A stretch of 64,000 nt of DNA from contig JAJRUT010000077.1 in assembly GCA_024277655.1 (NCBI GenBank), positions 3,867 to 67,866 on the forward strand, read 5' to 3'. The number at the start of each line of letters is the position of its first letter. Position 1 is the first letter of the stretch. Below the pieces are notes generated by a model, which had not been told where the DNA came from, did not search any database, and was given only the letters and a program-made list of their open reading frames with translations. The translations under genes and the position numbers were made by a program. Below are positions 13,377-60,096 of the stretch, piece after piece. The DNA comes from Deltaproteobacteria bacterium. Its GTDB lineage: Bacteria > Desulfobacterota > Desulfobulbia > Desulfobulbales > SURF-16.

Positions 13377-13378
13377 TG

Positions 13379-25348: not shown

Positions 25349-25819
25349 ATGAAAAATCATGTATTGCGGCCTATTATGGTTGCGATCGCAGCAGTAGCTC
25401 TGTTGTTGACGGCAAGAAGTATTTATGTGCCAGATGACTTTGGAGTTCATGGGAAAAACTTCACCTTTGGCTTTTATCGGGAGAGTAATGTCGATGAATG
25501 GAAGGCTATGCCAGCAAAGTACAAAGGGAAGCAGTATTGTGCAGAGTGCCATGATGAGCAGTATGACAGCATTACAGCCTCTAAGCATAAAATCATCCAA
25601 TGCGAAAATTGTCACGGTCCAGCTCTTAATCATCCTGACGAGCCTGAGGCTCTGACAATTGACAGAAGTCGTGGCCTTTGTCTCAGGTGTCACGCAGATC
25701 TACCATACCCGAATACTCTTCGGGCTGAACTTCCAGGTATCGACCCGGTTGAACATAATGCGGGTTCCGAATGCAGTGAATGTCATAACCCACATAAGCC
25801 ATCTCTGGAGGACATGTAA
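25349..25819 (+). CDS. Membrane-anchored tetraheme cytochrome c
   Basis: Four CXXCH motifs (CAECH, CENCH, CLRCH, CSECH) and an N-terminal hydrophobic helix. Confidence 0.85.
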   Translation: MKNHVLRPIMVAIAAVALLLTARSIYVPDDFGVHGKNFTFGFYRESNVDEWKAMPAKYKGKQYCAECHDEQYDSITASKHKIIQCENCHGPALNHPDEPEALTIDRSRGLCLRCHADLPYPNTLRAELPGIDPVEHNAGSECSECHNPHKPSLEDM

Positions 25820-25821
25820 TC

Positions 25822-26607
25822 ATGACTATTTCACGTAGAAACCTGCTCAAGAAAACCCTTGTTGGCACAGCAGTTGCAGCTCTTCCTGCTTTGCCACTTG
25901 GTGCCATTAAATTCCTCTCGCCTGCCGAGGCAAAGGCGGCTGTGAGCGAATCCAAGACCCGTTATGCCTTCTTGGTTGATACAAACAAATGTGTTGGCTG
26001 TGGTTTTTGTGTCAAGGCCTGTAAAAAGGAAAATGACGTTCCCTATGATTCACCGGTAACCAGGACCTGGGTTGAACGATACCTTATCACCAAAGATGGC
26101 AAATCCCATATCGATTCCCCTAAGGGGGCTCGTGATGGTTTCACCTCCCAGCTTCAGGAAAATCAACACGAAACGGTTGATCCTAAAGAGATTGATAAGG
26201 CATTCTTTGTTCCTAAGCTTTGCAACCAGTGTGAAAGCCCGGCATGTGTGCAGGTTTGCCCCGTTGGGGCAACATATCAAACCAATGATGGTGTTGTTCT
26301 CATTGACAGAACATGGTGTATCGGCTGTGGTTATTGCATTATGGCCTGTCCTTATGGTGTGCGTTATTTTCACCCTAAGTATAAGGTCGCCGATAAATGT
26401 ACCTTCTGTTATCACCGCCTTGCCAAAGGCTTGAAAACAGCATGTGTTGATGCCTGTTCTTTCGGAGCACGTCAGGTCTGTGATCTGAAAAATCCTGAAG
26501 ATCCCGCCACAAAAATTATTTTGACTGAACGAGTAGCTGTCCTAAAAGACGAGTATGGCACAAAGCCCCACGTCTTTTATCTCGGACTCGATAGGAATGT
26601 GAGGTAA
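25822..26607 (+). CDS. Tat-exported 4Fe-4S ferredoxin-type subunit (NrfC/PsrB/DsrO family)
   Basis: Twin-arginine signal SRRNLLK. Multiple CxxCxxCxxxC(P) clusters (CVGCGFCVKAC, CNQCESPACVQVCP, CIGCGYCIMACP). Confidence 0.85.
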   Translation: MTISRRNLLKKTLVGTAVAALPALPLGAIKFLSPAEAKAAVSESKTRYAFLVDTNKCVGCGFCVKACKKENDVPYDSPVTRTWVERYLITKDGKSHIDSPKGARDGFTSQLQENQHETVDPKEIDKAFFVPKLCNQCESPACVQVCPVGATYQTNDGVVLIDRTWCIGCGYCIMACPYGVRYFHPKYKVADKCTFCYHRLAKGLKTACVDACSFGARQVCDLKNPEDPATKIILTERVAVLKDEYGTKPHVFYLGLDRNVR

Positions 26608-26610
26608 GCA

Positions 26611-27858
26611 ATGAATGAACAATTAATAACCCACGGTGCTGATTGGACAATCAAACACCTTTTTGTCTATCCAAATGAGTTTATTTACTGGGGGCTCACC
26701 ATTGTGATGTACCCCTACATGACGGGACTCGTTGCTGGAGCCTTTGTTTTGTCATCGCTCTATCATGTTTTTGGTCAAGACGATCTCAAGGATTTGGCAA
26801 AGTTTGCCCTTGTTTTTTCCCTGGCACTCCTGCCGGTTGCCATGATGCCGCTTATGCTGCATCTCCAGCAACCGTTTCGGGGTATACATGTCATGTTTAC
26901 GCCGCATTTCACCTCAGCCATTGCCGCGTTCGGTATTGTCTTTTCGACCTACGCCATGATTGTTCTCAGTGAAATCTGGTTTGTGTACAGAAAATACTTT
27001 GTTGAGCAGGTACATGCTTTAAAGGACAGCGACAGCCGTGTTCTGCGAATGAAACGTCTGGTGTATGTGGTTTTGTCCCTTGGTGCCTTTGACCTTAGTG
27101 ACGAGGCTATCGCCAAGGATAAAAAAGCCGTTACCATCCTTGCTGCAATTGGTATTCCTGTGGCCTGTTTTCTCCACGGCTATGCCGGGTTTATCTTTGG
27201 CTCGGTCAAGGCTAACGCCCTGTGGATGTCGCCACTTATGCCGGTCATTTTTATCATGTCCGCCATTGTCTCGGGTATTGCCCTGTGTATGTTGACCTAT
27301 ATCATCATCATGGAATGGAAGAAATTCTCCACTACCCTGGCCCGTGGCCGCGGGGATGACAGTGTCAAGATTATTGCCGGTGTCGAACTTGATGTTATCA
27401 AGAAGGCCACCCGTTATCTTATTGGCTTTCTTATTGCTGCCATTACCCTGGAGCTTCTTGATCTCATCTTCCGTGGCTACACCGCGATGAAATCATGGGA
27501 TATCCTTAGAGAGGTTATGTACAAGGAAGACTTCTTTAAGATTTTCATCCTGCAATACGGTTTTGGTAACCTGTTGCCATTCCTGATGCTGATGATCCCA
27601 GGGGCCAAGATTAAACGTACGGCAATTGCCCTGGCACTCATCCTCTTCGGTGTATTTATGATGCGTTGGAATGTTGTTATTGGTGGTCAGGCGTTCTCTT
27701 TATCCTTTGCCGGATTCATGGATTACGACGTGCCATTTATTCCCCATCATCTAGAGTTGTACAAGGAAGGTATTTTGGGTGCTCTTACCGTAGCAGCTAC
27801 GCCTTTCTGTCTCTTTTATATCATTAACAAGTTTGTTCCATCACTCAAACGAAGTTAA
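26611..27858 (+). CDS. NrfD/PsrC/DsrP-family integral membrane quinone-interacting subunit
   Basis: 415 aa with about 10 hydrophobic helices. It follows the FeS subunit directly, which is the typical NrfCD gene order. Confidence 0.7.
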   Translation: MNEQLITHGADWTIKHLFVYPNEFIYWGLTIVMYPYMTGLVAGAFVLSSLYHVFGQDDLKDLAKFALVFSLALLPVAMMPLMLHLQQPFRGIHVMFTPHFTSAIAAFGIVFSTYAMIVLSEIWFVYRKYFVEQVHALKDSDSRVLRMKRLVYVVLSLGAFDLSDEAIAKDKKAVTILAAIGIPVACFLHGYAGFIFGSVKANALWMSPLMPVIFIMSAIVSGIALCMLTYIIIMEWKKFSTTLARGRGDDSVKIIAGVELDVIKKATRYLIGFLIAAITLELLDLIFRGYTAMKSWDILREVMYKEDFFKIFILQYGFGNLLPFLMLMIPGAKIKRTAIALALILFGVFMMRWNVVIGGQAFSLSFAGFMDYDVPFIPHHLELYKEGILGALTVAATPFCLFYIINKFVPSLKRS

Positions 27859-29600: not shown

Positions 29601-29688
29601 AGAATTCAGGATTCAGGATTCAGGAGCCAGAATTTAAGTAGAATGGCTGGGAAATATGTTGTAGCGAATTCTGAATTCAAAGAATACT
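29601..29688. repeat. Approximately 85-bp repeat element copy A (GATTCAG heptamers plus conserved core)
   Basis: Shares the blocks TCAGGATTCAG, AGCCAGAATT, AGTAGAATGGC, AAATATGTTGT and GAATT..TGAAT, in the same order and orientation, with 31412-31497. Confidence 0.75.
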
Positions 29689-29946: not shown

Positions 29947-31350
29947 CTAGGTTTTAGGCGTTGGCCACACCTTTTCGGAGGCAATAATCTTTGTGCATTT
30001 GCGAAATCCAAGATTAACCGGCAGAAAGAAAAATGGGCGAATTCGCGGTTTCCTTAAAATTCGCTGCCAGATCCCTTTAAGTGAGTAGACCCGTTTCCAT
30101 ACATGGCGCATCCCCTGATGTAGCTCCCTTGCTGTCATCTTTTGGGGGATAAAGGTCACGGTGCCATGTTCATAATCCCCCCAGTCTTTACTGGTAATTC
30201 TGTTCTCGCGCTCCATCTGGTGAAATAGCGCAGTACCCGGCAGGGGGGTCATGATTAGGGTGAAGGCGGTTTCCAATTGGTTTTCCAGGATAAAATCGGC
30301 AAGTTCAGCAAAGACCTCGGGGGTATCCTCATCAAAACCCACGATAAACGTGCCCATCACACCAATATCCCGGTCGTGCAACGCCTTGATACACTCGGCG
30401 TACTGGTCGACCTTATTGGGGATTTTGCCCATATTGTTGATATTGGCCTGGTTGAGGGACTCAAAGCCGATATTCATACTCATGCACCCCGATTCTGCCA
30501 TTAGATCAAGAAGTTCCGGGTCACGTATCAGGTTGAAACTGGCATGCCCGTACCACCTGATATCACATTCCTTTAACACTTGAAGTACGGCTCGGGCGTG
30601 GGCTGGCTCAGAGATAAAATTTGAATCCATTACGTAGAGTAATCGGTGTTCTATGAAGTAGGGGATGTCCTTGTGCCAATGCTTGGCAAGCCAAAGTTTC
30701 CATTTGGCCTGGGGGGGACGGGGGCCGAAGAGGTCCAGTAGCTCTTTTTTTATGGCTTCAGGCGGTCTGGTGCGAAATTTTGACCCGAAAAAATCTTTCA
30801 CCGCGCAAAATTTACAGCCAACCGGGCAGCCCCTGGTGGTCTCAATAATTTCCCCCGGATGATAAAATTTTTGCTTAAATAAATCACGCCGAATAGGGGG
30901 CAGAGTGGCTAGGTCAACCGGGGTGCCAGCGTAGGTTGTTTGTAATTTTCCTGCTGTGAAATCGTTAAGGATTTGCGCCCAGACTGATTCTCCTTCATGG
31001 AGGATGATAGCGTCGGCATGGCGCAGGCCTTCCTCCGGCAGGGCGGTGACGTGCATCCCGCCCAAAATTGTTGTGACCCCGCGTTTTAGCAGGGCATCAC
31101 TAATTTTATAGGCCGAGGGCATATGGTGGGTTTGGCCGACAATAAGGGCCAGATCGCACGGCTCATCATGGGGGACCTCTTCAAAGGTGCAATCCACCAG
31201 GCGAACCGTAAATGTTTCCGGGGTGATGGCGGCAATCATCGGCAGACTTATGGCTGGATATCCCAGGAGGGGAAGTTTGATTCCGAAGGCCCTGTTGCGT
31301 TCCGGGGATTCCATGGCTGGGGCGATAAGAAAGATTGTTGGCTTTGGCAT
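29947..31350 (-). CDS. B12-binding domain radical SAM protein (about 460-aa TTRGCP subtype)
   Basis: TTRGCPVGCKFCAV. LALIVGQT...ILGGMHVT B12-like region. GFESL. Confidence 0.85.
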   Translation of the reverse strand: MPKPTIFLIAPAMESPERNRAFGIKLPLLGYPAISLPMIAAITPETFTVRLVDCTFEEVPHDEPCDLALIVGQTHHMPSAYKISDALLKRGVTTILGGMHVTALPEEGLRHADAIILHEGESVWAQILNDFTAGKLQTTYAGTPVDLATLPPIRRDLFKQKFYHPGEIIETTRGCPVGCKFCAVKDFFGSKFRTRPPEAIKKELLDLFGPRPPQAKWKLWLAKHWHKDIPYFIEHRLLYVMDSNFISEPAHARAVLQVLKECDIRWYGHASFNLIRDPELLDLMAESGCMSMNIGFESLNQANINNMGKIPNKVDQYAECIKALHDRDIGVMGTFIVGFDEDTPEVFAELADFILENQLETAFTLIMTPLPGTALFHQMERENRITSKDWGDYEHGTVTFIPQKMTARELHQGMRHVWKRVYSLKGIWQRILRKPRIRPFFFLPVNLGFRKCTKIIASEKVWPTPKT

Positions 31351-32221: not shown

Positions 32222-32366
32222 GAGTGTTTCCTTAAGGTTTACAAGGTGAAAAAATGAATGGAAAAGATGGGTAATAGTTGTTATAATTCTCCCTTTACCG
32301 CGATTCTGTTGGTATCACTGAATAGATATCTTGAAAACTGTAGTTTTACTAACTTTAAGGACGAAA

Positions 32367-33650
32367 ATGCTAAATATGAAATTACCCGGAGGGCTGATTA
32401 GCACTGTGCTTAGCTTGGCCTCTAACCTATCGGATAAAAATTTACTGCGCATCATCAATTCCTTGGGAAAATTAACCTCTATTGAATGGCAGGATAAAGG
32501 AGTTCGCGCCCTCAGGCGAATGATTGAAGAGAAACATTCCGGTATTGAAGCCACCAAGCGGGCCATAAAGAACATGAACCCGAAGGTGCGGGCCCAGATG
32601 GTGAACAACTTTCTGCTTGGCGGTATCTTACTTGGCTATAAAAAACGTTACGCCTTTTGGGAGGCCAACGGTGTGGCTCCTCCTGGAAACTTGATGATCT
32701 CCACCACCACCAAATGTAATCTCCGCTGTTATGGGTGTTATGCTGGAACCCACCAGATTGCCGATGAGCTGACCCGCGAAGAGGTGGAGATGCTTGTTGA
32801 AGAAGCGGGCAAGGCTGGGACAAATATTATTACCATGCTTGGTGGTGAGCCTCTTACCATGCCGTGGATGCTTGATGTTGTGGAAAAATATCCTGATGTC
32901 GGGTTCCAGATTTTCACCAACTCTCTCCTTCTTGATGATGAGAAAATTGCCCGTCTTGCTAAAACTGGTAATGCCATAATTGCAATTGGGGTTGACGGCC
33001 CCAAAGAACTCACTGATGATCGTAAGGGCGAGGGGGCATTTGACGGGGCGCTGGCCAATATGCGTAAACTTCGTGATGCCGGTGTCTTGGTGGGTTATTC
33101 CACCATGGTCAGTCGGAAAAACTTTGATCATATCTATGCCGATCCGTTTATTGATACCATGATTGAGGCCGGGGCTTCTTTTGGTTGGTGTGCCGTTGCT
33201 ATTCCGCAGGGTAAGGCATGTCGTGAGTTACAGCTCATCCCAACCCCTGAGCAAAAGGCGAGAATTCCGGAAATGGTGCGGAAGGTTAGGGAGCGAAAGC
33301 CCATTACGATCATTGACTTTTACTCCGACGCCAATGTCACCGAAGGGTGTGGGGCTGGGCGTGTTACCCTGCATGTTAATAACACCGGTGATGTTGAGCC
33401 CTGTGTCTTCTTTCCATTTACGGTTGATAATATTCGCGACAAACCTTTCCATGAGATATTGAAATCTGATTTTCTCAGAGATATCCGCAAGGTCCATAAG
33501 GATTATCCAGGCCAGCTGCAAACCTGTATGATGGTGTCTCAGCCCCAGGCGGCGCTGAAGGTTATTACTGACTGCAGGGCTAAAGAGACATCTGATGGTA
33601 CCTTGGAGCAGCTTGCCAATTTAGCTGAAGTAGCTGAAGCTGCTAATTAG
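32367..33650 (+). CDS. Radical SAM protein with SPASM/twitch-like C-terminal Cys region
   Basis: TKCNLRCYGCYAG (CX3CX2C). C-terminal GCGAGRVTLHVNNTGDVEPC matches the CxAG...GDVxPC SPASM signature. The ATG at 32367 has AAGGA 6 nt upstream; the ORF track starts at TTG 32331. Confidence 0.75.
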   Translation: MLNMKLPGGLISTVLSLASNLSDKNLLRIINSLGKLTSIEWQDKGVRALRRMIEEKHSGIEATKRAIKNMNPKVRAQMVNNFLLGGILLGYKKRYAFWEANGVAPPGNLMISTTTKCNLRCYGCYAGTHQIADELTREEVEMLVEEAGKAGTNIITMLGGEPLTMPWMLDVVEKYPDVGFQIFTNSLLLDDEKIARLAKTGNAIIAIGVDGPKELTDDRKGEGAFDGALANMRKLRDAGVLVGYSTMVSRKNFDHIYADPFIDTMIEAGASFGWCAVAIPQGKACRELQLIPTPEQKARIPEMVRKVRERKPITIIDFYSDANVTEGCGAGRVTLHVNNTGDVEPCVFFPFTVDNIRDKPFHEILKSDFLRDIRKVHKDYPGQLQTCMMVSQPQAALKVITDCRAKETSDGTLEQLANLAEVAEAAN

Positions 33651-33976: not shown

Positions 33977-35347
33977 ATGTGTATTTGCAAGAGTAGTAAG
34001 CAGACAAAAAAGGTTCTCCTTATCTTTCCGCGCACCCAGGGAAGTCAGGTCTTTAACGATGCTGGCTTCCCCTTTCCGCTTTTGGGCCTAACCCAACTTG
34101 CGGCTGCTTTTCCTGAGCGCTATAAATTTACCCTTATCGATGAGAGTGTGCGGCCGGTGTCAGGGGCTGAGGACGCTGATCTTGTCTGCATCACCACCAT
34201 GACGGCCACGGCAAATCGGGCCTATGAACTTGGCGATTTGTATCTGCAGCGCGGCCTGACTGTGATTATTGGTGGCGCCCATGCCACGGTTCTGCCTGAT
34301 GAAGCCGCGCAACACGCAACGAGCGTTGTGATTGGCGAGGCTGAAAATGTTATTTCTGAGCTCGTTGACGATCTTGAAGCGGGCACCCTTAAGCCAAGAT
34401 ACAAGGCCAGTGAATATACGTCTCTTTCTACATTGTCTCCTCCCAGGGTTGATCTTTTAAGTTGGCGCCATCGTCTGTTCCTGGCATCATTGCAAACCAC
34501 ACGCGGTTGTCCGAATCATTGTGATTTTTGTTCCGTCCCCCAGGTGTTTGGTCGTAGGCTGCGCCAGAAATCCATCGAAACCATCAAACGTGAGTTGCAA
34601 ACTGCTAAAAAGTACCGCTCCAGGTATATGTTTGTGGTGGATGATAACTTTACCGCCAATCGTGCCAGTGCCCGTGAGCTTATGGCGGTGTTTAAATTCT
34701 ACGGTATGCCGTGGATGGGCTTTTCCACCCTGGCAACCGCTGAAGACCCACTATTTTTGCGAGAGCTTCGTGATTCAGGCTGTATTTCTCTTTTTATTGG
34801 CTTTGAATCCCTTCTGCAGCCGGGAGCCTTTGTTAAAAACAAAAAATATGCTGATCCTGCTGCCGTTGCCGGGGCTGTAAAAACTATTCATGCTGCGGGT
34901 ATTGGTATTCAGGGCTCGTTTATCTTTGGTTTCGATCACGATACGGTTGCGGTGTTTGCTTCAGTTGTGCAGTTTATTCAGGAAAATGAGATTGAGGTGC
35001 TTAATATGAACATCCTCACCCCATTTCCCGGCACCAAACTCTATGACCGTTTTGAGGCCGAGGGGCGTCTTATTCACCACGACTGGTCACAATATGATAT
35101 GAACCATGTGGTGTTTACCCCCACCGGTATTACGGCAGAAGAATTGATGCAAGGCTATCTCTGGACGATTAAATATTTGGCCTCACCCACTATTATTTTA
35201 AAACGGTTATCATGGCGCAGGCCCCATTACACCTATTTTCTAACCGCCAATTTCGCTATGCACAGGGCTCACACCAGGATGGCAAACAGTCGCTGGAATA
35301 AAGAGGTGCAAACGCAGATTGAAGCTAAAGGGGGATGTTTGATTTGA
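33977..35347 (+). CDS. B12-binding domain radical SAM protein (about 456-aa TTRGCP subtype)
   Basis: TTRGCPNHCDFCSV. LVCITTMT...IIGGAHAT. GFESL. Confidence 0.85.
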   Translation: MCICKSSKQTKKVLLIFPRTQGSQVFNDAGFPFPLLGLTQLAAAFPERYKFTLIDESVRPVSGAEDADLVCITTMTATANRAYELGDLYLQRGLTVIIGGAHATVLPDEAAQHATSVVIGEAENVISELVDDLEAGTLKPRYKASEYTSLSTLSPPRVDLLSWRHRLFLASLQTTRGCPNHCDFCSVPQVFGRRLRQKSIETIKRELQTAKKYRSRYMFVVDDNFTANRASARELMAVFKFYGMPWMGFSTLATAEDPLFLRELRDSGCISLFIGFESLLQPGAFVKNKKYADPAAVAGAVKTIHAAGIGIQGSFIFGFDHDTVAVFASVVQFIQENEIEVLNMNILTPFPGTKLYDRFEAEGRLIHHDWSQYDMNHVVFTPTGITAEELMQGYLWTIKYLASPTIILKRLSWRRPHYTYFLTANFAMHRAHTRMANSRWNKEVQTQIEAKGGCLI

Positions 35348-37292: not shown

Positions 37293-39425
37293 ATGACTGA
37301 GTCGTATAAAATAGCCATTACAGGTATGGGTATCATTACTCCGGCAGGGTGCGGAGTTGCCCCCTTTGCCAAAGCTCTTTTTGCCGGAGACCATCAATTT
37401 TCCCCAATCCGGGGTTTTGCTGCCAATCTCCACCGTACCCAAGTTGGCGCTGAAATTACCCGTTGCGACTATTCTGCCAATCGTCTTGATATGTCTACTT
37501 TGGCAAGGACAGATCTCTTCGCTCTTGAGGCTGCCAGTCAGGCCTTGACTGATGCCGGTCTTCTCGATGCTGACAGGTTATGTCTTGCCCCGCATATGGG
37601 AGTTGTCTGTGGCACGGCGGGTGGTGCTATTTCTGGTCTTGAAACCTTTTTTTCTAATAGGTTTCACGGCAGGTCATGTGAGGCAAAATCACTGTTAAAC
37701 TCATTTTGCCTGTCGGCTCTTGCCACTAATATTGCCAGGGAGTTTCAGATTGAAGGCCCCAGAACCACCCTTGCCACCGTTTGTTCTTCAAGTGGCCTGG
37801 CGTTGGCTAGGGGTTTTGAGATGCTCCTAACCGATAAGACGGTGGATCATGTTCTGGTGGTCGCCGCCGAGAGTCTGTCGGAGGTAACCCATGGCGGGTT
37901 TAACGCCCTGCGCTCCGTTGCCCCTGAACTATGCCAACCCTTTGATGTGAACAGAAAGGGCTTGATCCTTGGTGAGGCAGGGTGTGCGTTGGTCTTAAGC
38001 CGTGTTGGCCCATCTAAATATGGTTATCTGGCAGGCTATGGACTCACCACCGATCTTTATCATTTTACCGCCCCTGATCCGCAGGGTGGAGCCATTGCCA
38101 CTGCCATCAGCAAGGGGTTATCCCATGCGGGAATTACGGCTTTAGATGTTGATTATATTAATTGCCATGGTACAGCGACGCCAAAGAATGATGCGGCTGA
38201 AGCCAGGGGCATAGGTGCTGTGTTTAAAGACCGGCGTATTCCGGTTTCTTCGACAAAATCCATGTTTGGTCATACCCTTGGGGCGGCAAGTTTGCTTGAA
38301 GCCATTGCCACACTCCTCGGTATGGCAAAGGAGTTGCTACCTCCTTCCGCGAATCTTGATACCCCTGATGATTTTGAGTTGGATGTTGTTACCAGGGCAA
38401 GACCATGTAAGATAAAAGCGGCCCTATCTAACTCCTTTGCCTTTGGCGGTTCCGATATCTCCCTCGTCTTGACCACGGATCATTCACCAAGGCATAGCTT
38501 TCGGGAGCCAATAACAGAGGCGGTGATCACCGGTATTGGTGTTGTCTCGCCGCTCGGGATTGGCTGTGATACTTTTAAGACCAATGTTGCAGGTGGGGAG
38601 TCTGGTCTGCAGTCCATGGCTCTGTTTGGTTCTGAGTTTACGATGCCGGGTGGTTTGGTTGATATGACCGAGGTGCGGAGCCATATCCCCTTGAAGCGCC
38701 GACGCAGGTTGAATCGCCTTGGCAGTTTTCTCAGCGTTGCCGTGGCTGAGGCCTTAAGTCAGGCGGGTCTTGTTGATGATGTCTCAGGTCTGGCCATGGT
38801 ATATGGGTCGGCCTTTGGTTGTTCGTCCAATGTTCATCAGTTTTACTCGAAAATACTAGAGGGTGGGGCTGCCACCGCTTCCCCCCAGGAATTTATGTTT
38901 TCCGTAACCAATGCCCCGGTTGCCCTTGTGGCCCAGCACCTGCAAATTCCCGGTGAGGTGTGGGTGCTGGTGCAAGATGAGGTCTCCTTTGAGGCAGCTC
39001 TCCATTATGGTGCCATGCTCATTGAAACCGGTAAGGAACAACGGGTGATTGTCGCTGCCGCCGATGAGCTTAGTGACTCAATCCTGGCCATTCATCAGGG
39101 CCTTGGCTTTTTTGCTGGAGATTATGTGCTGGGTGAGGGGTGTGTGGCTCTGGTTCTTGAAAATAGGTATATGGCAGTTGGGCGGCAAGCGCAAATTATA
39201 GGGAAAATCAAACTATGCGAAATGAGTCAGGATCCAAGCTGTGGGCCGGTTGATTTTAGTATGCATGGCCTGGTAGGCAATGACTTTCATTCCCGTATCG
39301 GTCAGTCCGGTGTGGTGGGTGGTTTAACCCTTGTGGCCGATATCCTTGCTGGCAACCACAATGACATTAAGGTCGTCACTCGTAGTCGTGGCGGTATCAA
39401 TGCTACAACCATGGTGTCACGGTAG
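37293..39425 (+). CDS. Fused beta-ketoacyl synthase + KS-like (CLF-like) didomain protein
   Basis: 710 aa. The N-terminal half has ATVCSSS, CHGTATPKND and GHTLGAAS. The C-terminal half (from about aa 410, AVITGIGVVSPLG) is thiolase-like with RRRRLNRLGS but lacks the His motifs. Confidence 0.8.
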   Translation: MTESYKIAITGMGIITPAGCGVAPFAKALFAGDHQFSPIRGFAANLHRTQVGAEITRCDYSANRLDMSTLARTDLFALEAASQALTDAGLLDADRLCLAPHMGVVCGTAGGAISGLETFFSNRFHGRSCEAKSLLNSFCLSALATNIAREFQIEGPRTTLATVCSSSGLALARGFEMLLTDKTVDHVLVVAAESLSEVTHGGFNALRSVAPELCQPFDVNRKGLILGEAGCALVLSRVGPSKYGYLAGYGLTTDLYHFTAPDPQGGAIATAISKGLSHAGITALDVDYINCHGTATPKNDAAEARGIGAVFKDRRIPVSSTKSMFGHTLGAASLLEAIATLLGMAKELLPPSANLDTPDDFELDVVTRARPCKIKAALSNSFAFGGSDISLVLTTDHSPRHSFREPITEAVITGIGVVSPLGIGCDTFKTNVAGGESGLQSMALFGSEFTMPGGLVDMTEVRSHIPLKRRRRLNRLGSFLSVAVAEALSQAGLVDDVSGLAMVYGSAFGCSSNVHQFYSKILEGGAATASPQEFMFSVTNAPVALVAQHLQIPGEVWVLVQDEVSFEAALHYGAMLIETGKEQRVIVAAADELSDSILAIHQGLGFFAGDYVLGEGCVALVLENRYMAVGRQAQIIGKIKLCEMSQDPSCGPVDFSMHGLVGNDFHSRIGQSGVVGGLTLVADILAGNHNDIKVVTRSRGGINATTMVSR

Positions 39426-39427
39426 TT

Positions 39428-40903
39428 ATGGCTGATTTTGACGCTGTTGTTATCGGTTCAGGCCTTGGCGGACTTACCACTGCCGCATTGCTTGTAAAGC
39501 AGGGGCTAAAGGTATGTCTGCTCGAAAAGAATAACAGGCTTGGCGGTTATGCGGTTAATTACACGGCTCGTGGTCATCGCTTTGATGTGGCGACCCAGGC
39601 CCTTGGGGGGTGTGGTGAGGGCGGGATTGTCTCGGCCCTTCTTAGAGACCTTGGTCTTTATAATAAGCTTACCTTTCTTCCCTGTGAACCGGCGCGAATC
39701 TATCATTTCCCCGACTCACCAGCCCCCTTTATTCAGCATGGGTTCCTCAAGGAGCAACGGAACCTGCTATGTTCACTCTACCCCGATCAGCGGCTGGCGA
39801 TAGAAACCTGTTTTGAGGTTTTTACCACGCTCTTTGCTGAGTTGCAGGACATTGCTGTGGCTGATACCAGCCCGTTGTTTGGTTTTAGTAAAAAATACCC
39901 GGCCCTTGCCCGCTATGGACGGCTGACGGTTAAGGAATTTTTTGACTCGTTACACCTCCCTGAGAAATTACAGATAAGAATTGGTGCCAGGTCTGGTTAT
40001 TGTATGCTCCCCCTGTCTGATTTGTCACTGGTGGCTTTTGCCTGTACTGAAATGAGTTACGGGGGCGGGGCATGGATGGTGCGGGGTGGCGTGGGGCAAC
40101 TGGTTACGGTGCTTGGCGATTATCTTCGTGAAGACAGGGTTGAGATTTACAGGAAAAGCAGGGTGGAGAGACTTTTATTTGCCGGTGACAAGGTTGTTGG
40201 CGTAGAGACACGGCAGGGCAAAAAAATCACCGGCAAAGCGGTTGTCATGGCTGTGGATGGCTCGGGAATTTTGGCGCAATCAGAGGAACCCTGTGCGCCA
40301 CTTCTGGCAAAATATAAAAAAATGGCATGCACTGGTTCCTATCTTGTCAGTTATTACCAGGTTCCGCTGGATTGTGTCGAGAATATGCAGGCCAATATTG
40401 AAGTCAGGCTTCCCAGGCAAATCATTGCCGAGACAACAAAAATAGATGTATATTACCTCCTTATTCCGTCCTTGGTTGATAAGGATTCAGCACCGGAGGG
40501 TAAGCATTCATTTTGTGTTTCAGTGCCCCTTCGGGCGGGTGTTATGCCGGATCATCATGAGCGTCTTGCCATTCGCATGCGCCTTGAGCAACTGGTGGTG
40601 GAGTTATATCCCCGGTTGGCAGGTAAGTTAAGTTTTTTGTTTACACTTGGGCCAGATCACTTTAAGTCCATGACAGGTAACAGTAATGGCGCGGCCTACG
40701 GTTTCTCTCAGACCGTTAGTCAATCCGGGATCTACCGTTTAGGCAATAATCCCAGGATTGCTGGACTTTATCTGGCCGGACACTGGACCATGCCCGGTGG
40801 TGGGATTGCCGGGGTGATGACCTCTGGGAAATTATGCGCGCGAGCTGTGATTAATGATGTTTGTCACCTTGAAAAGTTAACCTCTAAAAGCATGCCATCC
40901 TAA
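39428..40903 (+). CDS. FAD-dependent oxidoreductase, phytoene desaturase (CrtI)/amine oxidase-like
   Basis: VVIGSGLGGLTTAALLVKQGLKVCLLEKNNRLGG. C-terminal LAGHWTMPGGGIAGV. Paralog of 3119-4597. Confidence 0.75.
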   Translation: MADFDAVVIGSGLGGLTTAALLVKQGLKVCLLEKNNRLGGYAVNYTARGHRFDVATQALGGCGEGGIVSALLRDLGLYNKLTFLPCEPARIYHFPDSPAPFIQHGFLKEQRNLLCSLYPDQRLAIETCFEVFTTLFAELQDIAVADTSPLFGFSKKYPALARYGRLTVKEFFDSLHLPEKLQIRIGARSGYCMLPLSDLSLVAFACTEMSYGGGAWMVRGGVGQLVTVLGDYLREDRVEIYRKSRVERLLFAGDKVVGVETRQGKKITGKAVVMAVDGSGILAQSEEPCAPLLAKYKKMACTGSYLVSYYQVPLDCVENMQANIEVRLPRQIIAETTKIDVYYLLIPSLVDKDSAPEGKHSFCVSVPLRAGVMPDHHERLAIRMRLEQLVVELYPRLAGKLSFLFTLGPDHFKSMTGNSNGAAYGFSQTVSQSGIYRLGNNPRIAGLYLAGHWTMPGGGIAGVMTSGKLCARAVINDVCHLEKLTSKSMPS

Positions 40904-40908
40904 CAATT

Positions 40909-42447
40909 ATGACAAAATCAAAAACAAAATTTCTTCTGGTTGATCCCCCCCATCGTATCTGGGATATCTTAAAGGCGTGGATTCCGTCCCCCGGTTGTCT
41001 GCAACTTGCCGCCTATTTAGAGGATTATTTCAGCATAGATTTCATGGACTGCACCCTTAATAAAAGTCCATGGCATGATCTTGAAAAGAAACTTCGCGCT
41101 GATCGGCCTGATGTTGTGGGTATTTCCATTGGTTGTACCTATTTTACCTATGATGGTTATAACGCCGCTTCACTAGTGCGTGATATCCTGCCTGATGCCG
41201 TGATTATTGTTGGTGGGGCGCATCCTACCCTAAATGCTGATGAGTGTTTTGCTGATTGTCCTGAGATTGACTTTATCTGCATGGGGGAGGGGGAGTACAC
41301 CACCCGGGAGTTTCTTGAGAATTTTGCTAAGGGCAACCCTGACTACTCGCATATCAAGGGTCTTGCCTACAAAGATGAACAGGGCAATCTTGTTATTAAC
41401 GAAAAACGGCCCCTAATTGAAGATCTTGACTCCCTGCCCATCCCGGCCTACCACCTGGTTGATATGGAACATCCTTATATTGGTCTGCCCTCTGAGGGTA
41501 AGCGGGCGTTCTTGGTGAACTTTGCCAGGGGCTGCGGTTTCCGCTGTAAATTTTGTTCAGAATCTGTTTTTTGGGAGCGGAAATGGCGGGGGCGTTGTCC
41601 TGAGCTGATTGGTGATGAGCTTGAACTCTTGAAAAAGACCTATAATCGCGACACCTTCTATGTCGGGGATAACATCTTTAACTTTACCCGTGAACGCTCC
41701 AAAGGGTTTATCAGCGAGATGAAGAAGCGCGACTTAAAGCAGAATTTCTGGTTGCAGTCCCGGGCCGATATTGTCGTGCGGGATGCTGATCTTATGGCCG
41801 GCTTTAAGGAGGCAGGGGTTTATCAGTTTATGATTGGCGTGGAGTACTCTAGTCAGGAGGTTCTAAATACCCTGGATAAGGATATCTCCATGCAGACGGT
41901 TGAAAAGGCCATGCAGATCCTCCAGAAGCATCAGTTTATGATTATGGCAACACTCATGATTGGTCACTGGGACGAGACAGATGAGGATCGCCAGAAGCTG
42001 TTTGATTTTTGTACCAAATATGTCAATCATTTTGGCCTCAATGTCGTGACACCACTGCCTGGGACGGAGTTTCACACCGAGATGAAGGCCCTGGGGCGGG
42101 TGGAAAACGTTGATTACCGTAAATTCGATTATATTCAGGCCATCATGCCCACAAAGGAGATTGATGATCTTGATAAAATCACCGAACTGCACCTTGGCAT
42201 GATCCGCAAATTCTATTGGCGACCCATTGAGCTGTGGCGCACGTTCTTTTCAAAGAATAAAATCCTCCGCCATCACCACCGCTACTTTATGAAGTACGGT
42301 TTTGAAGTGGCCCAGCACGAGATTTTTGGCAAACCACTCTGGGTGCAGGAAAACTTCCAGACCTTTGAATCCTTCCTGCGTGAGCGCGGAGTGCCTATTA
42401 ATGGTAGTTTTGCCGGGTATGAGCCGGATGAGAGTGTGGAAATTTAA
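40909..42447 (+). CDS. B12-binding domain radical SAM protein (512 aa; paralog of 673-2136)
   Basis: ARGCGFRCKFCSE. FLLVDPPHRIW...SPG...VVGISIG...IVGGAHPT. Its C-terminal region aligns with that of 673-2136. Confidence 0.85.
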   Translation: MTKSKTKFLLVDPPHRIWDILKAWIPSPGCLQLAAYLEDYFSIDFMDCTLNKSPWHDLEKKLRADRPDVVGISIGCTYFTYDGYNAASLVRDILPDAVIIVGGAHPTLNADECFADCPEIDFICMGEGEYTTREFLENFAKGNPDYSHIKGLAYKDEQGNLVINEKRPLIEDLDSLPIPAYHLVDMEHPYIGLPSEGKRAFLVNFARGCGFRCKFCSESVFWERKWRGRCPELIGDELELLKKTYNRDTFYVGDNIFNFTRERSKGFISEMKKRDLKQNFWLQSRADIVVRDADLMAGFKEAGVYQFMIGVEYSSQEVLNTLDKDISMQTVEKAMQILQKHQFMIMATLMIGHWDETDEDRQKLFDFCTKYVNHFGLNVVTPLPGTEFHTEMKALGRVENVDYRKFDYIQAIMPTKEIDDLDKITELHLGMIRKFYWRPIELWRTFFSKNKILRHHHRYFMKYGFEVAQHEIFGKPLWVQENFQTFESFLRERGVPINGSFAGYEPDESVEI

Positions 42448-43024: not shown

Positions 43025-44413
43025 ATGCAAAGAAACAAAAAGAAAATACTCTTTATTTCACCAGCCAGAAACAGGGGGCCGGATGAAGACTTCATCTTCA
43101 AACTCAGCTTTCTTAATCTCCCCTATCTTGCCGGGGTTACACCGGATCATTATGACGTTGAGATTATAGACGAAGAACGCAATGTTATCAACTTTGATGA
43201 TGATGTCTGGCTTGTGGCGTTAACGGCTCAAACCCCGATTGCCCCTAGAGCCTATGAGGTTGCGGGTGAATTTCGCAGGCGGGGGGTGACGGTTATTATG
43301 GGCGGGGTGCATGCCTCGACCTTGCCAGATGAGGCGCTTTGCCATGTGGATTCGGTTATTATTGGTGAGGGTGAATTTGTCTGGCGCCAGATTCTTGATG
43401 ACCTGGAGGCCGACAGTCTGCAAGAACGTTACTCCAGCGGCACCACCCATTCCCTGGCTGGTCTGGACTGGCCCCGGCGTGATCTGTTGAATCCAAAACA
43501 TTACATTCCTCTGACCCTGATGGAGACCACACGGGGTTGTCCCCATCACTGTGATTTCTGTGGGGTGTCCAAGTTCTTTGGTCATAAATATCGTAAACGC
43601 CCCCTGTCTGAGGTGAAGGCGGAACTTGAATCATTGTTTGGTGGTGGCTTTCGCCATGCTTTCTCCCGTTTTCTGGCCAAAATGGGGCTGGATATGCCCT
43701 ATTTTATCGAACGCCGGCTTATTTATTTCATTGATTCAAATTTTGCCGCCGATAAAAAATATGCCGTCAGCATCATGGAGGAGCTTAAAAAACTCGATGT
43801 GAAATGGTGGTGTCACGCCACGGTGGATATTGCCAGTGATCCCGATTTTCTTACGAAGATGAATGAATCAGGGTGCTTGGCGGTTAATGTCGGTTTTGAA
43901 TCTCTGTCGCCAGAAAATTTAAAATCCATGCATAAATCCTATGCCGCAAAGCACGATTATCCCAAGGCTATAAAGGCCTTTCACGATCATAATATCGGTG
44001 TGATGGGCACCTTTGTGGTGGGGTTTGATGGGGAGGACGCGTCAATCTTTCGCCGGGTCTTTGATTTTTCCATTGATAATCAGCTTGACTGGTCACTTAC
44101 CTTTATCAGAACCCCGTATCCCGGTACCACTATGTATAACAAGATGGAGGAGGAGGGGCGGATTACGGTGCGGGACTGGGAGAAGTATGACACCCTCCAC
44201 TGTGTGTTTGAGCCTGAGGGTATGTCGGTACTGGAGCTTGAAGATGGCTTGAAATCGTTATGGAAATACACCTTTTCCATGAGTTCAATCTATCGCCGGA
44301 TCATTAAGGGGCCACGGGTACATCCGTTGTTTTATCTAGGGATGAATATGCAGTTCTTGCAGATGGTCAGGAAGTGGCGGGTCAAGTATGATCCCTTCGT
44401 GGACAAAGGGTGA
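43025..44413 (+). CDS. B12-binding domain radical SAM protein (about 462-aa TTRGCP subtype)
   Basis: TTRGCPHHCDFCGV. LVALTAQT...IMGGVHAS. GFESL. Confidence 0.85.
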   Translation: MQRNKKKILFISPARNRGPDEDFIFKLSFLNLPYLAGVTPDHYDVEIIDEERNVINFDDDVWLVALTAQTPIAPRAYEVAGEFRRRGVTVIMGGVHASTLPDEALCHVDSVIIGEGEFVWRQILDDLEADSLQERYSSGTTHSLAGLDWPRRDLLNPKHYIPLTLMETTRGCPHHCDFCGVSKFFGHKYRKRPLSEVKAELESLFGGGFRHAFSRFLAKMGLDMPYFIERRLIYFIDSNFAADKKYAVSIMEELKKLDVKWWCHATVDIASDPDFLTKMNESGCLAVNVGFESLSPENLKSMHKSYAAKHDYPKAIKAFHDHNIGVMGTFVVGFDGEDASIFRRVFDFSIDNQLDWSLTFIRTPYPGTTMYNKMEEEGRITVRDWEKYDTLHCVFEPEGMSVLELEDGLKSLWKYTFSMSSIYRRIIKGPRVHPLFYLGMNMQFLQMVRKWRVKYDPFVDKG

Positions 44414-49409: not shown

Positions 49410-49596
49410 GGTCTGGGGAATTGTCAGTAATGTATGGCTGTTCAAGGCTTGTTTTTTTCGTTTTACATGGATGGACAGCGTTTCTCTCTTTATCCTGCTC
49501 ATCCTGTCCTGAATCCTGAATCCGAATAATATTCAAGTCCAATAAGAGCAAAAAAACGACGTTAATCTATCAATAGAATGCAAGTGGGAAGGTGGA

Positions 49597-56101: not shown

Positions 56102-56491
56102 TCAGGTGTGGGGTATATTTTCGAGAACTCGTTTTAATTGTTCGGACTTTAGGGGGGAGATGAACCTAACCCCTAGGCTAAATGGGGTGAGGTGGGCGGA
56201 GAGACTGCGGTTAAACCAATCAGGTTTTGCCGGGAGGGTAATCTCTTTGCCACCTGGGCAGTATAAAATGATGTGGAGCAGGAGTTCTCTTGATTCCATG
56301 GCAGTATAGGCCAAGTGAACACGACCATCGAGTATCTCGGGCAGGGACAACCCGGCTCCCTTCATGGAAATATCAATGAGGTTGCCAGTTAAAATGGCTG
56401 ATTTTTGCGCGCCGTATTCACCCTCCGCCAGGAAAATACCGATCTTGCCAGTGCATGGGTGACGCTTGTTTTGTCGCCGTTCAAGTAGCAT
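56102..56491 (-). CDS. PilZ domain protein
   Basis: RRQNKR (RxxxR) and DISMKGAG (DxSxxG). Confidence 0.7.
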   Translation of the reverse strand: MLLERRQNKRHPCTGKIGIFLAEGEYGAQKSAILTGNLIDISMKGAGLSLPEILDGRVHLAYTAMESRELLLHIILYCPGGKEITLPAKPDWFNRSLSAHLTPFSLGVRFISPLKSEQLKRVLENIPHT

Positions 56492-57420
56492 TAAGTCCTT
56501 ATCCGTAACTGTTTGTGGATGGCTTGTTTAATTAGTGGAGCCACCGAGTATATATCAAATAATAAGTCAGATTTGCGATTTGGATAGGTGTTCGTGCCTA
56601 TTATCTTGGTGATGCCGCTTTTTATAAAGCGTTCCTGGCTGTCCCCGGACATTACAAGGTGGGTGGCCATGACGATGGTGTCTGTTGCCCCTGCGTCCTT
56701 GCAGCGTTCGGCGGTTTGGATAATGGAGCCGCCTGTACGAATCATATCATCACAGATAATAACGGTTTTGCCTGAGACCACCGAGGCCACCTGGCCCACC
56801 ATGGTTTTATCTTTGGCAAACCGGTCTTTGTCGGCAGCCGTATGGGCTACGCCAAGTTTACCGGCAAGGCGTGCCACCCATTTTGATCTGCCATAGTCCG
56901 GCGAAACCAGAACAAAGTTTTCTAGATTTAATGAGTTGATTTTGCTGATAATCAACTCATCTGTTTGGATGTGCAGGGTGTGGATATTGCCGCAATGGGC
57001 ATTGAGAACGGCTTCTGAATGGAGGTCGATAAAGGCGGTGAAATGTGGCCTGGCCCTGAATATTTGCCTAGTCCTGGTTATTCCCTTGGGGACTTCAAAG
57101 ATGCCGGGTTTTGCCTGTTCCATGGTTGAGTAGCCGAGATACGGGACAATCACATTGACGGTGTGGGCCATGTAATGATGACAACCATCGATTATGTCAA
57201 TTAGCTCCAGTAACGAGTTGTCGGTCGGGGTGGAGGCGATGATGACCACATCGCGGCCGCCGATATCGGTCGGGAAGGCGTGATAAATTTCGCCATCGGA
57301 GAACTCCTGACGCTGCATTGGTGTGGATTTGCACTGGAGCAGGTCTGCCGTTTCCTTGGCCAGGTCTGCCGATTCCAGGTTGGAGAGAATAATAAGGTCT
57401 TTTATGGATGCTTGTTTCAT
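56491..57420 (-). CDS. prs: Ribose-phosphate pyrophosphokinase
   Basis: 309 aa. VSPDYG. PRPP-binding loop VIICDDMIRTGGSI. Confidence 0.85.
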   Translation of the reverse strand: MKQASIKDLIILSNLESADLAKETADLLQCKSTPMQRQEFSDGEIYHAFPTDIGGRDVVIIASTPTDNSLLELIDIIDGCHHYMAHTVNVIVPYLGYSTMEQAKPGIFEVPKGITRTRQIFRARPHFTAFIDLHSEAVLNAHCGNIHTLHIQTDELIISKINSLNLENFVLVSPDYGRSKWVARLAGKLGVAHTAADKDRFAKDKTMVGQVASVVSGKTVIICDDMIRTGGSIIQTAERCKDAGATDTIVMATHLVMSGDSQERFIKSGITKIIGTNTYPNRKSDLLFDIYSVAPLIKQAIHKQLRIRT

Positions 57421-57614
57421 AAGAGGCTACCAAATCGTGCTTTAGGGCCTGTAAAAAAGATATCAGCTATCTTATTTCCCTACAGACCCTTTACTGGTCG
57501 GAAATAATAAATAATTTTGTGACCTTAATCGAACCACGCCCCTCCCGACCAGAGAAAAAATACAAATCAGTTAAAAATGTGGTCTGGATAGCACCTGATA
57601 TTTGACCTGGGTTA

Positions 57615-58517
57615 TTACAGATGGATATCCTCACCACTCACCAATCTGACAAGTTCTTTGTAGTCCTCACTTCCCTTTGAATTTGGCGCAAATTCAAAGA
57701 TTGTCTGGCCGTAGGCCGGAGCTTCACAGAGCTTGATATTGTATCTGATGGGTTGACTGATGTGGTCGCCGTACAGTTCCTGCAGTTTATGCAAGATGGT
57801 TGCGCTGTTGCGCACCCTTTTGTCGTGAAAGGTGGGAATAATGTATTTTAGACCAAGTTTTTTGTTGTATTTCTGGATTGCTGAGAAGGATTTGAGAAAT
57901 TCCACCAGTCCCTGCAGGGTCATGACCTCCAGAGAAACAGGGACGATAATCTCGGTGACAAAAAACAGGACGTTGACAATGATGGGATCCCAACCGGGGG
58001 AGGTGTCAAAGATAATGTAGTCAAACTGGTCAGCAATGGGGTCAAGCTTTTCGGTGAGGGTATGTTCGCCGCCAAAGTCCTTGCGCTGAATAAGCCGTTT
58101 TACTCCGGCAAGTGATTTTCCACCCCCAAGAAGCCAGAGGTTTTCCCTGGCCTGGAAATACGCCTCTTCAGGGGGTAGTTCGCCGGTGATAAGTTCGGTA
58201 AGCCCCGCCTTCGGTTGTACGCCAAGCATAAAGGCCGACTGGCCCTGGGTGTCGGTATCTATAAGGAGAACCCTTTTTCCGGCAAGAGCCAGGCCGTGGG
58301 CCAGGTGTACGGCTGTGGTGGTTTTTCCGACTCCCCCCTTACTGAGGGTTACTCCAAGTTTTCGTACTTTTTTCTTTTCGGGGATGATCTTTGGCGAGCT
58401 TTCGGTGAAGGGGAAGAGCTTTTTGCAGTATTTACAGCGAACTAGGGTGATATTTGGTGGAATACGGGTCTTGTCAATCGTATGTGTTTTCTGGCAGTGG
58501 GCGCAGTGTAGGATCAT
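57615..58517 (-). CDS. ParA/MinD-family ATPase with N-terminal zinc ribbon
   Basis: CAHCQ...CKYCK (MJ0042-type finger), then the deviant Walker A SKGGVGKTTTAVHLA. Confidence 0.8.
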   Translation of the reverse strand: MILHCAHCQKTHTIDKTRIPPNITLVRCKYCKKLFPFTESSPKIIPEKKKVRKLGVTLSKGGVGKTTTAVHLAHGLALAGKRVLLIDTDTQGQSAFMLGVQPKAGLTELITGELPPEEAYFQARENLWLLGGGKSLAGVKRLIQRKDFGGEHTLTEKLDPIADQFDYIIFDTSPGWDPIIVNVLFFVTEIIVPVSLEVMTLQGLVEFLKSFSAIQKYNKKLGLKYIIPTFHDKRVRNSATILHKLQELYGDHISQPIRYNIKLCEAPAYGQTIFEFAPNSKGSEDYKELVRLVSGEDIHL

Positions 58518-58537
58518 TGGTTCTGGAAACCTGTGGC

Positions 58538-58933
58538 CTAAAAATCTGGCATAAAGGAAAATAAACTGGCTCTATGGTCATCCATAAAACGTTTGAGAAG
58601 TTCTTTTGTCTGGTGATCCATCTCAATGAGTTCAATGCCACAGAGACAGCCCACATCCTCTGCTGAGATGTGGGCGACACAACCCTTGACCTTGCAGGAT
58701 ACGGTGTCAATGGTCAGGACAATGTCAGTAACATTGTCTCCTGTGACAAAGGTGTTGATGTTATCAAGGTAGATGCCAACGCCACCTGCGGCAATATTAA
58801 CAATCTCATAGCTGGTGTCAGCAATAGTGATACTGATCTTACTCGTTTCATCAATTGGTATTCTGAAAAATTTACGACCGCCATTGCTATTGTTGTCTGT
58901 CATCTGAGTTTCCTTTGGGGGTGGAATAATCAT
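58538..58933 (-). CDS. PilZ domain protein
   Basis: RKFFR (RxxxR) and NIAAGGVG (a variant of D/NxSxxG). The stop is 20 nt from the ParA-like start. Confidence 0.6.
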   Translation of the reverse strand: MIIPPPKETQMTDNNSNGGRKFFRIPIDETSKISITIADTSYEIVNIAAGGVGIYLDNINTFVTGDNVTDIVLTIDTVSCKVKGCVAHISAEDVGCLCGIELIEMDHQTKELLKRFMDDHRASLFSFMPDF

Positions 58934-59072
58934 TGTACCGGTCTATTTTAAGGGGGAATATTTGCTTGACAAGGAAGGGCGACCTGTGTTTGTAACGTCA
59001 GTATATCATAGATGTAAGTAGTGGATCAAAAAGAAAAAATCAGGCTTTGCTGGGTGTAAAGGGGGGATATAA

Positions 59073-59294
59073 ATGAAGGTGACAATTACCTACTGTACAA
59101 GGTGAAATTATTTACCGAGGGCTTCCGGTCTGGAGGCTGAACTTGTGACAGCGTTTAAAGCGGATGTCGAGTTGCTTGCTGGCTCTGATGGTATTTATGA
59201 TGTGGTGGTGGACGATGTTCTGATTTTCTCCAAGAAAAAAGAGAGGCGTTTCCCCGAAGATGGTGAGGTTGCCAAGTTGATCGAGGCGTTGTAG
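59073..59294 (+). CDS. SelW/Rdx-family selenoprotein (in-frame TGA = Sec at codon 11)
   Basis: Not in the ORF track. Hand translation: MKVTITYCTR-U-NYLPRASGLEAELVTAFKADVELLAGSDGIYDVVVDDVLIFSKKKERRFPEDGEVAKLIEAL*. CxxU redox motif at TGA 59103-59105. G-rich Shine-Dalgarno (GGGGGG) upstream of the ATG. The frame stays open for 62 codons after the TGA. Confidence 0.75.
59121..59137 (+). promoter_or_regulatory. Candidate bacterial SECIS apical hairpin
   Basis: GCUUCC-GGUCU-GGAGGC (6 bp including one G:U). The stem begins 16 nt after the UGA and the loop is G-containing. Confidence 0.4.
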
Positions 59295-59297
59295 GGC

Positions 59298-59416
59298 CTG
59301 ACTCCTGAATCCTAACTCCTAACTCCTGAATTCTGACTCCTGAATCCTGACTCCTGAATTCTGACTCCTGAATCCTGACTCCTGAATCCTGACTTCTAAC
59401 CCCTAACTCCTACTCC
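59298..59416 (+). repeat. Tandem array of 17 heptamers (CTGACTC/CTGAATC/CTAACTC variants)
   Basis: Units counted directly: CTGACTC CTGAATC CTAACTC CTAACTC CTGAATT CTGACTC CTGAATC CTGACTC CTGAATT CTGACTC CTGAATC CTGACTC CTGAATC CTGACTT CTAACCC CTAACTC CTACTCC. The array fills the whole gap between the convergent selW-like and yggS genes. Confidence 0.9.
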
Positions 59417-60096
59417 CGATTACCAAAGATTGCCGTGCCAACCCGGATCATGGTGGCGCCTTCGGCAATGGCGACTCGGTAATCCGCTGACATGCCCATT
59501 GATAATTCCAATGGTTTGTCTTGGGCCAGCAGGCCGTCCTGTTTAAGGCTCATACCTAATTCCCTGAGGGCTGTAAAATAGGGGCGACTCTCTTCAGGGT
59601 CGTGACCGTAGGGTGGAATGGTCATCAGGCCGCAGATCTCAAGGGCTGGCAGGGGCTGGATGGCCTTCAGTAGTTCCACGGCCTGTTCCGGTAGAATCCC
59701 GGATTTTTGAGGTTCCAGCCCGACGTTTACCTGGATTAGAATCTTTTGGACCTTGCCAAGGTTTGTGGCGTGTTTGGCGATGGTCTTGGCGATTTTCAGC
59801 CGATCCACGGTATGGATTAAGTCAAAATAGGTGACGGCAAGTTTGGCCTTGTTGGATTGCAAGGGGCCAATGAAATGGAAAATGCCACGATCCTCGGAGA
59901 GATCCTTGATCTTCTCCACCGCCTCCTGCATAAAATTTTCGCCAAAATCGACCTGGCCGCAGTCCAGGGCCTGCCTTATCGTTGCAACCGGTTTTCGTTT
60001 GGAGACGGCGATCAGCTTAATGGGGGTGTGGCGGTCAAACTCTTTGGCCGCAGTCTTAATATCCTGTTTTATCCGGGCAATATTGTCAGCAATCAT
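59410..60096 (-). CDS. yggS: YggS-family pyridoxal-phosphate homeostasis protein
   Basis: 228 aa. VSKRKP (PLP Lys), HFIGPLQSNK, and a C-terminal IRVGTAIFG. Confidence 0.8.
   Translation of the reverse strand: MIADNIARIKQDIKTAAKEFDRHTPIKLIAVSKRKPVATIRQALDCGQVDFGENFMQEAVEKIKDLSEDRGIFHFIGPLQSNKAKLAVTYFDLIHTVDRLKIAKTIAKHATNLGKVQKILIQVNVGLEPQKSGILPEQAVELLKAIQPLPALEICGLMTIPPYGHDPEESRPYFTALRELGMSLKQDGLLAQDKPLELSMGMSADYRVAIAEGATMIRVGTAIFGNRE

Follow-up and report, generated by a model that had tools for sequence, protein, structure and literature searches.

The locus at 59073-59294 on the forward strand of the analyzed DNA, a 64-kb stretch referred to here as the window, raises the question of whether an in-frame TGA ends a short reading frame or encodes selenocysteine (Sec) within a complete gene. 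The frame comprises 73 codons with a single in-frame TGA, located within a C-T-R-U motif, and it translates as MKVTITYCTR-(TGA)-NYLPRASGLEAELVTAFKADVELLAGSDGIYDVVVDDVLIFSKKKERRFPEDGEVAKLIEAL-(TAG). The start codon occupies 59073-59075 and the terminal stop 59292-59294, giving a product of 73 amino acids in which the TGA is codon 11 and is followed by 62 further codons. Because a TAA is located immediately 5′ of the ATG (59070-59072), no earlier start is possible in this frame. Genes of this type are skipped by ORF finders, since Sec is encoded by the stop codon UGA; accordingly, the sole entry for the locus in a mechanically produced ORF list is a 49-aa fragment extending from GTG 59145 to 59294. 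A preliminary description of the locus, made from the letters of the DNA, had attributed the absence of the gene from a six-frame track to the TGA, and this explanation agrees with the ORF list. Re-translation returned the same coordinates for the gene, the TGA and the stop codon, as well as the same run of 62 open codons after the UGA, and the G-rich Shine-Dalgarno sequence that had been described before the ATG corresponds to the G-run listed in Table 1. A promoter and terminator scan found neither a consensus sigma-70 promoter nor an intrinsic terminator on the forward strand at the locus.

Table 1. Coordinates of the candidate selenoprotein gene and its elements within the window
Feature	Position	Strand	Basis
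Shine-Dalgarno-like G-run AGGGGGG	59060..59066	+	Read from the sequence; 6 nt 5′ of the ATG; putative function
CDS, 73-aa SelW-like (Rdx family) predicted selenoprotein	59073..59294	+	Translation; Pfam/NCBIfam; PDB alignments; same layout in 82 homologous loci
Cys8 codon TGT, predicted resolving cysteine of CxxU	59094..59096	+	Cys invariant in 82 distinct sequences
In-frame UGA, predicted Sec codon (residue 11)	59103..59105	+	TGA in 83/83; second CxxC cysteine at this position in solved Cys-form homologues
SECIS-like hairpin	59120..59138	+	Arms of the conserved core stem at 59122-59127 and 59131-59136; G 59128 in the apical loop; the window sequence adds two closing pairs

The family assignment of the product was examined using a query protein in which Sec (U) was written as C. 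The Pfam Rdx model (PF10262) matches residues 2-71 over profile positions 1-73 of 74 (E = 5.4e-20; 71.8 bits against a cutoff of 22.6), and two NCBIfam models were passed, namely TIGR02174 (56.9 bits; cutoff 34.2) and the equivalog NF041051, "SelT/SelW/SelH family (seleno)protein," the latter at 89.2 bits against a cutoff of 88, a margin of 1.2 bits that hinges on the U-to-C replacement. Likewise, six solved bacterial Rdx proteins (3DEX, 2FA8, 2OKA, 2OBK, 2P0G, and 2OJL) match residues 2-70 with E values between 2.7e-11 and 6.7e-06. In the 3DEX, 2FA8, and 2OKA alignments, which extend from residue 2 or 3 to residues 64-70, YCTQC falls exactly on YCTRU. The CxxC of the Cys forms and the CxxU of the window protein thus constitute a classical Sec/Cys pair, with homology covering both flanks of the TGA. 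The Rdx (SelW/SelT/SelH) layout proposed in the preliminary description is therefore borne out by an end-to-end profile match, and homology restricted to one side of the TGA, which that description had named as an outcome that would speak against its reading, is not what these searches returned. The motif Y-C8-T-R-U11 directly follows the first β-strand, with both Cys8 and the TGA at codon 11 invariant in 83 sequences. A tGxFEI(V)-type motif is present as D-G40-I-Y-D-V, with G40 invariant and GGVFEV or GGVYEV found in the relatives. A thioredoxin-like fold is predicted for the 73-aa protein from its sequence homology to the six solved structures.

Compared with bacterial SelW-like selenoproteins (PF10262, TIGR02174/NF041051), the window protein shows no difference of substance: it shares their size (~70-80 aa), the N-terminal β-strand followed by CxxU, the C-terminal G-x-[FY]-[ED]-[VI] and FSK...RFP motifs, and a SECIS hairpin immediately after the UGA with a G in the apical loop, and it departs from most relatives in carrying DGIYDV in place of GGVFEV/GGVYEV. 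Among the selenoprotein families in the Sargasso Sea data, SelW-like CXXU proteins ranked first in abundance, with 48 genes (PMC1088965). The Cys-form Rdx proteins of solved structure are homologous to residues 2-70, with CxxC aligned on CxxU, and belong to the thioredoxin-like fold family predicted for the window protein, but they have Cys for Sec, are ~30 residues longer (103-108 aa), and carry a W/L-rich helix (CRWLLRAAW) where the selenoprotein clade has UNYLPRASGLE, the segment that encodes the SECIS-like hairpin. Eukaryotic SELENOW and SelT/SelH/SelV also belong to the Rdx family and share with the window protein the Cys-x-x-Sec arrangement, a tGxFEI(V)-type motif, and the thioredoxin-like fold predicted for it. 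The eukaryotic Rdx selenoproteins are regarded as thiol-based oxidoreductases with this type of motif (PMC10650576), and their SECIS elements are located in the 3′ UTR and have another structure, whereas the bacterial type lies inside the coding region after the UGA (PMC1088965).

A scan for relatives, conducted on one genome per species with a query built from four sequences, returned 368 loci, of which the best 80 were examined. The comparison set comprised 82 fetched loci, or 83 sequences together with the window, and codon statistics were computed on 82 distinct sequences. The codon at position 11 is TGA in all 82 fetched loci and in 83 of 83 sequences with the window; a Cys codon was found at this position in none. 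Because the search pattern of the scan lay upstream of codon 11, the TGA was not selected for by the search. It is kept down to ~52% identity and across several phyla: among the best 80 loci, most are from Desulfobulbales (Desulfocapsaceae, Desulfobulbaceae, Desulfurivibrionaceae, and cable bacteria), and a few are from MAGs labelled Acidobacteriota, Planctomycetota, Myxococcota, or Marinimicrobia. The window protein is at most ~70% identical to any retrieved sequence. As a separate observation, two contigs of one MAG, Desulfocapsa sp. NORP205 (L067 and L080), each contain a SelW-like gene with the TGA; the two differ by a few residues and appear to be either recent paralogues or strain variants that were binned together.

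A protein search retrieved 13 relatives, of which the full-length ones have W at the Sec position and the remainder begin just past it. The underlying DNA of two of these relatives has TGA at this position, and the W calls derive from short metagenome contigs of ~500-1100 bases, on which gene callers read TGA with genetic code 4. Public gene calls for this clade (P0001-P0011; L001, positions 118-339) are systematically wrong in one of two ways, with Trp at the Sec position or with an N-terminal truncation that removes CxxU.

The pattern of substitution in the 82 distinct sequences is that of a coding region on both sides of the TGA. Mean column entropy is 0.42 bits at codon positions 1 and 2 versus 1.44 bits at position 3 over codons 2-10, and 0.51 versus 1.22 bits over codons 12-26. 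Cys8 is encoded by TGT in 36 sequences and by TGC in 46; at Ile5, Tyr7, Asn12, Tyr13, and Pro15, the residue is conserved and synonymous change is free. Variation concentrated at third positions on both flanks implies that both are translated in one frame, and the codons either side of the TGA are subject to purifying selection at the protein level. The GTG at 59145, with which the 49-aa ORF begins, is not conserved; codon 25 is AAA, AAG, AGA, or others in the homologues.

Single-sequence folds of the RNA downstream of the TGA gave a hairpin with arms GGCUUCC (59120-59126) and GGAGGCU (59132-59138) and the loop GGUCU, starting 14 nt 3′ of the UGA. The hairpin that the preliminary description had drawn at 59121-59137 is real, being the same helix minus the closing G.U pair. 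Taken alone, it does not exceed shuffled sequence in stability (z = -0.83 and -1.23); with single-sequence stability at chance level, its significance comes entirely from comparison. All 83 sequences align without gaps over the 57 nt that start with the TGA, with no insertions or deletions between the UGA and the hairpin, and RNAalifold applied to this alignment recovered de novo a 6-bp helix (columns 20-25 and 29-34) that coincides with the core stem of Table 1. Its pair 21-33 brings together the third positions of codons 17 (Ala) and 21 and occurs as UA in 42 sequences, CG in 30, UG in 9, and another combination in 1, with C opposite A never observed (Fisher 1.5e-14, a statistic that ignores kinship among the sequences). 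The covariation score, likewise uncorrected for phylogeny, was higher than in any of 500 shuffles and than in each of the slid-partner controls. Within the stem, synonymous sites are frozen, with TCC as the Ser18 codon in 78 of 82 sequences and no variation at the third base of Leu20; at Pro15, beyond the stem, all four codons occur. Similarly, the loop G at position 26 is invariant although the amino acid at residue 19 can be Gly, Ser, or Arg, which places the constraint on the nucleotide and not on the amino acid; the base that follows it is U in 43 sequences, G in 34, and A in 5. Since the stem overlaps the conserved peptide ASxLE, its conservation is partly confounded with that of the protein.

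As in the SECIS of E. coli fdhF, the reference bacterial element, the hairpin is located in the coding region directly 3′ of the UGA. Its apical loop GGUCU presumably has the same letters as the fdhF loop, and its loop G is at position 26, counted from the U of the UGA, compared with G23 in fdhF. The stem is shorter than that of fdhF, and in the SelW-like family only the loop G is invariant, with the following U being variable. Rfam searches of the whole 64-kb window at gathering thresholds gave no match; for 59040-59440, with E values of up to 10 allowed, the matches were all noise, such as snoRNA and lncRNA models, and a SECIS family was not among them. Bacterial selenoprotein genes have been recognized by a stem-loop that directly follows the UGA and carries a G in its small apical loop (PMC1088965), and the same arrangement is found here, in the form of fixed spacing, the invariant G26, and the covarying pair 21-33. 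Thus, by comparative sequence analysis, this hairpin shows the characteristics of a bacterial SECIS, and its distance from the UGA, described earlier as the one expected for such an element, is constant across 83 sequences.

These observations bear on the other ways in which the locus could be read. That the gene is a pseudogene, i.e., a Cys-form Rdx gene killed by a nonsense mutation from TGY to TGA and yielding no full-length product, might be proposed because TGA is one substitution away from TGT and TGC and because no Sec machinery is visible within the window. Such a mutation is difficult to reconcile with a TGA kept in every sequence compared, across several phyla, and followed by 62 open codons, with purifying selection on both of its flanks and with a conserved, covarying hairpin downstream of it; given this conservation, the pseudogene reading is very unlikely. 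An alternative would have the downstream 49-aa ORF alone translated, with the upstream 10 codons as a chance extension. This ORF is the only one listed here by a standard finder, and some database entries are truncated in the same way, but its product would be without β1 and the CxxU redox motif, which define the family, and the putative ribosome-binding site precedes ATG 59073 and not GTG 59145. Moreover, synonymous variation over a conserved protein sequence is seen in codons 2-10 and 12-24. The entropy pattern, taken together with the nonconserved GTG, argues against both this reading, whose probability we regard as negligible, and the pseudogene.

The remaining possibility is readthrough of the UGA without Sec, in which an alternative genetic code or near-cognate suppression would place Trp, Cys, or Gly at this codon. 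The W that gene callers place at this site in homologues would be in line with such readthrough, but these calls originate from short contigs, and TGA terminates 14 of the 46 long ORFs of the window, indicating that the genetic code is standard. In addition, the solved homologues have the catalytic Cys of CxxC at the aligned position, and a conserved SECIS-type hairpin, its loop G invariant, follows the UGA at a fixed spacing, so that non-Sec readthrough appears highly improbable. The reading that we prefer, with a probability of about 0.93, is that 59073-59294 on the forward strand is a functional, monocistronic, and genuine Sec-encoding gene of the SelW-like type (Rdx family) with a product of 73 aa. 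The observation made in the preliminary description is confirmed, and its interpretation is supported.

In the mechanism envisaged for this Sec-encoding gene, the ribosome would initiate at ATG 59073 and would not terminate at the UGA, because the hairpin, with its exposed loop G, would act as a bacterial SECIS and recruit SelB-GTP-Sec-tRNA(Sec). Selenocysteine would be inserted at UGA 59103, with translation running on for 62 codons; the SelB-dependent step is proposed by analogy with established bacterial Sec decoding. The product would be a small thioredoxin-fold protein in which the Cys8-x-x-Sec11 pair, as expected from the family, would cycle between a reduced selenol/thiol and a selenenylsulfide. 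Such cycling would make the protein a thiol-based oxidoreductase.

Such a mechanism depends on the Sec-decoding machinery. Motif screens and Pfam scans of 50 ORFs identified no SelA, SelB, or SelD domains in the 64-kb window, and a tRNA scan found in it no tRNA-Sec and indeed no tRNA gene of any kind; in 60 related loci, no tRNA-Sec was detected and only tRNA-Arg was found. A search of the window for a second selenoprotein gene, covering split ORFs joined by one TGA and C/U redox motifs around every TGA, gave no credible candidate. Deltaproteobacteria are among the bacteria richest in selenoproteins, and Desulfotalea psychrophila is placed in Desulfocapsaceae, in the same order Desulfobulbales that supplies most of the relatives. 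Twelve selenoproteins have been listed for D. psychrophila, SelD and a SelW-like protein among them (PMC1794560, Table 3). Judging from this lineage and these relatives, selA, selB, selC, and selD are probably carried elsewhere in the genome.

The genomic neighbourhood carries no information on function. On the opposite strand 5′ of the gene are a PilZ-domain gene (58538-58933), a ParA-like ATPase gene, a PRPP-synthetase-like gene, and another PilZ gene. On the 3′ side, the convergent neighbours are a YggS-type gene for a PLP-binding fold (Pfam Ala_racemase_N; 59410-60096) and tatD, beyond which follow a nitroreductase gene, a 150-aa ORF, and coaBC; the 150-aa ORF has no Pfam match, and its N-terminus resembles a lipoprotein signal. 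Since the selenoprotein gene stands alone between divergent and convergent genes, there is no operon context to serve as a functional clue. The gene order around it is common to one metagenome contig (L002), with 72-80% protein identity. The order Rdx-yggS-tatD-nitroreductase-coaBC recurs, in part, in only ~7 of 82 loci, and the gene is located elsewhere in most relatives; for this reason, the neighbourhood was rejected as a clue to function.

Two features next to the gene deserve mention in their own right. In the divergent group (56102-58933), the two PilZ-domain genes flank the PRPP-synthetase-like gene and the ATPase, which is of the ParA/MinD type with an N-terminal zinc ribbon, and the same four-gene arrangement is also found upstream of the selenoprotein gene in another related locus (L037). 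On the other side, 59297-59416 is a tandem array of ~17 copies of the heptamer CCTGACT (with the variants CCTGAAT and CCTAACT), which starts 3 nt past the stop codon of the selenoprotein gene and ends 7 nt inside the 3′ end of the convergent YggS-type gene. Short runs of the heptamer are also located at 29604-29625 and 49508-49519, both intergenic (12 matches versus 0.31 expected). The heptamer is absent from all 82 related loci, including the syntenic L002, and no terminator-like structure was found in the array.

Farther from the locus, Pfam scans delineated a very large lipid- or polyketide-like gene cluster at 673-44413. It includes nine B12-binding radical SAM enzymes (among them those encoded at 673-2205, 7113-8699, 14268-15602, 20557-21918, 29947-31350, 33977-35347, 40909-42447, and 43025-44413), one SPASM radical SAM enzyme (32331-33650), three β-ketoacyl synthase genes (18180-19394, 19339-20556, and 37293-39425), and two phytoene-desaturase-like flavin amine oxidases (3119-4597 and 39428-40903). 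The cluster also contains LuxC/LuxE-like genes (11440-13481), an MMPL transporter, a LolA-like protein, a lipid A acyltransferase-like protein, a thioesterase, a family 2 glycosyltransferase, short-chain dehydrogenases, and methyltransferases. We take it to resemble the radical-SAM/desaturase/KAS clusters discussed for ladderane-type and other unusual lipids in anammox bacteria and Desulfotalea. Within the same interval, three genes at 25349-27858 encode a small multihaem cytochrome c with paired CXXCH motifs, a 4Fe-4S dicluster protein whose N-terminus is Tat-signal-like by eye, and an NrfD-type membrane subunit, with no molybdopterin catalytic subunit adjoining them; in appearance, this module resembles the quinone-interacting redox complexes that are typical of sulfate or sulfur reducers.

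With regard to the SelW-like family, the complete retention of TGA (83 of 83 sequences, Cys codon in none) allows a more tentative suggestion, namely that this clade, centred on Desulfobulbales and also found in other phyla, may be obligately Sec-containing; that its R-A-S-x-L-x-x-E-L segment may be conserved chiefly for encoding the SECIS; and that the gene and its SECIS may then have spread together by horizontal transfer. We consider this proposal possible but rather doubtful. If the segment were kept chiefly for the SECIS, RNA structure would be dictating protein sequence, and an obligate requirement for Sec, if true, would refine known biology without adding a new system. The gene itself is one more orthologue of a long-known family with a long-known mechanism, for which curated HMMs already exist. 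Its main value is thus in annotation, since standard ORF callers give a 49-aa fragment here and the public relatives are truncated or mistranslated with Trp. A correct call would add one selenoprotein to the selenoproteome of this organism and would mark its genome as Sec-decoding.
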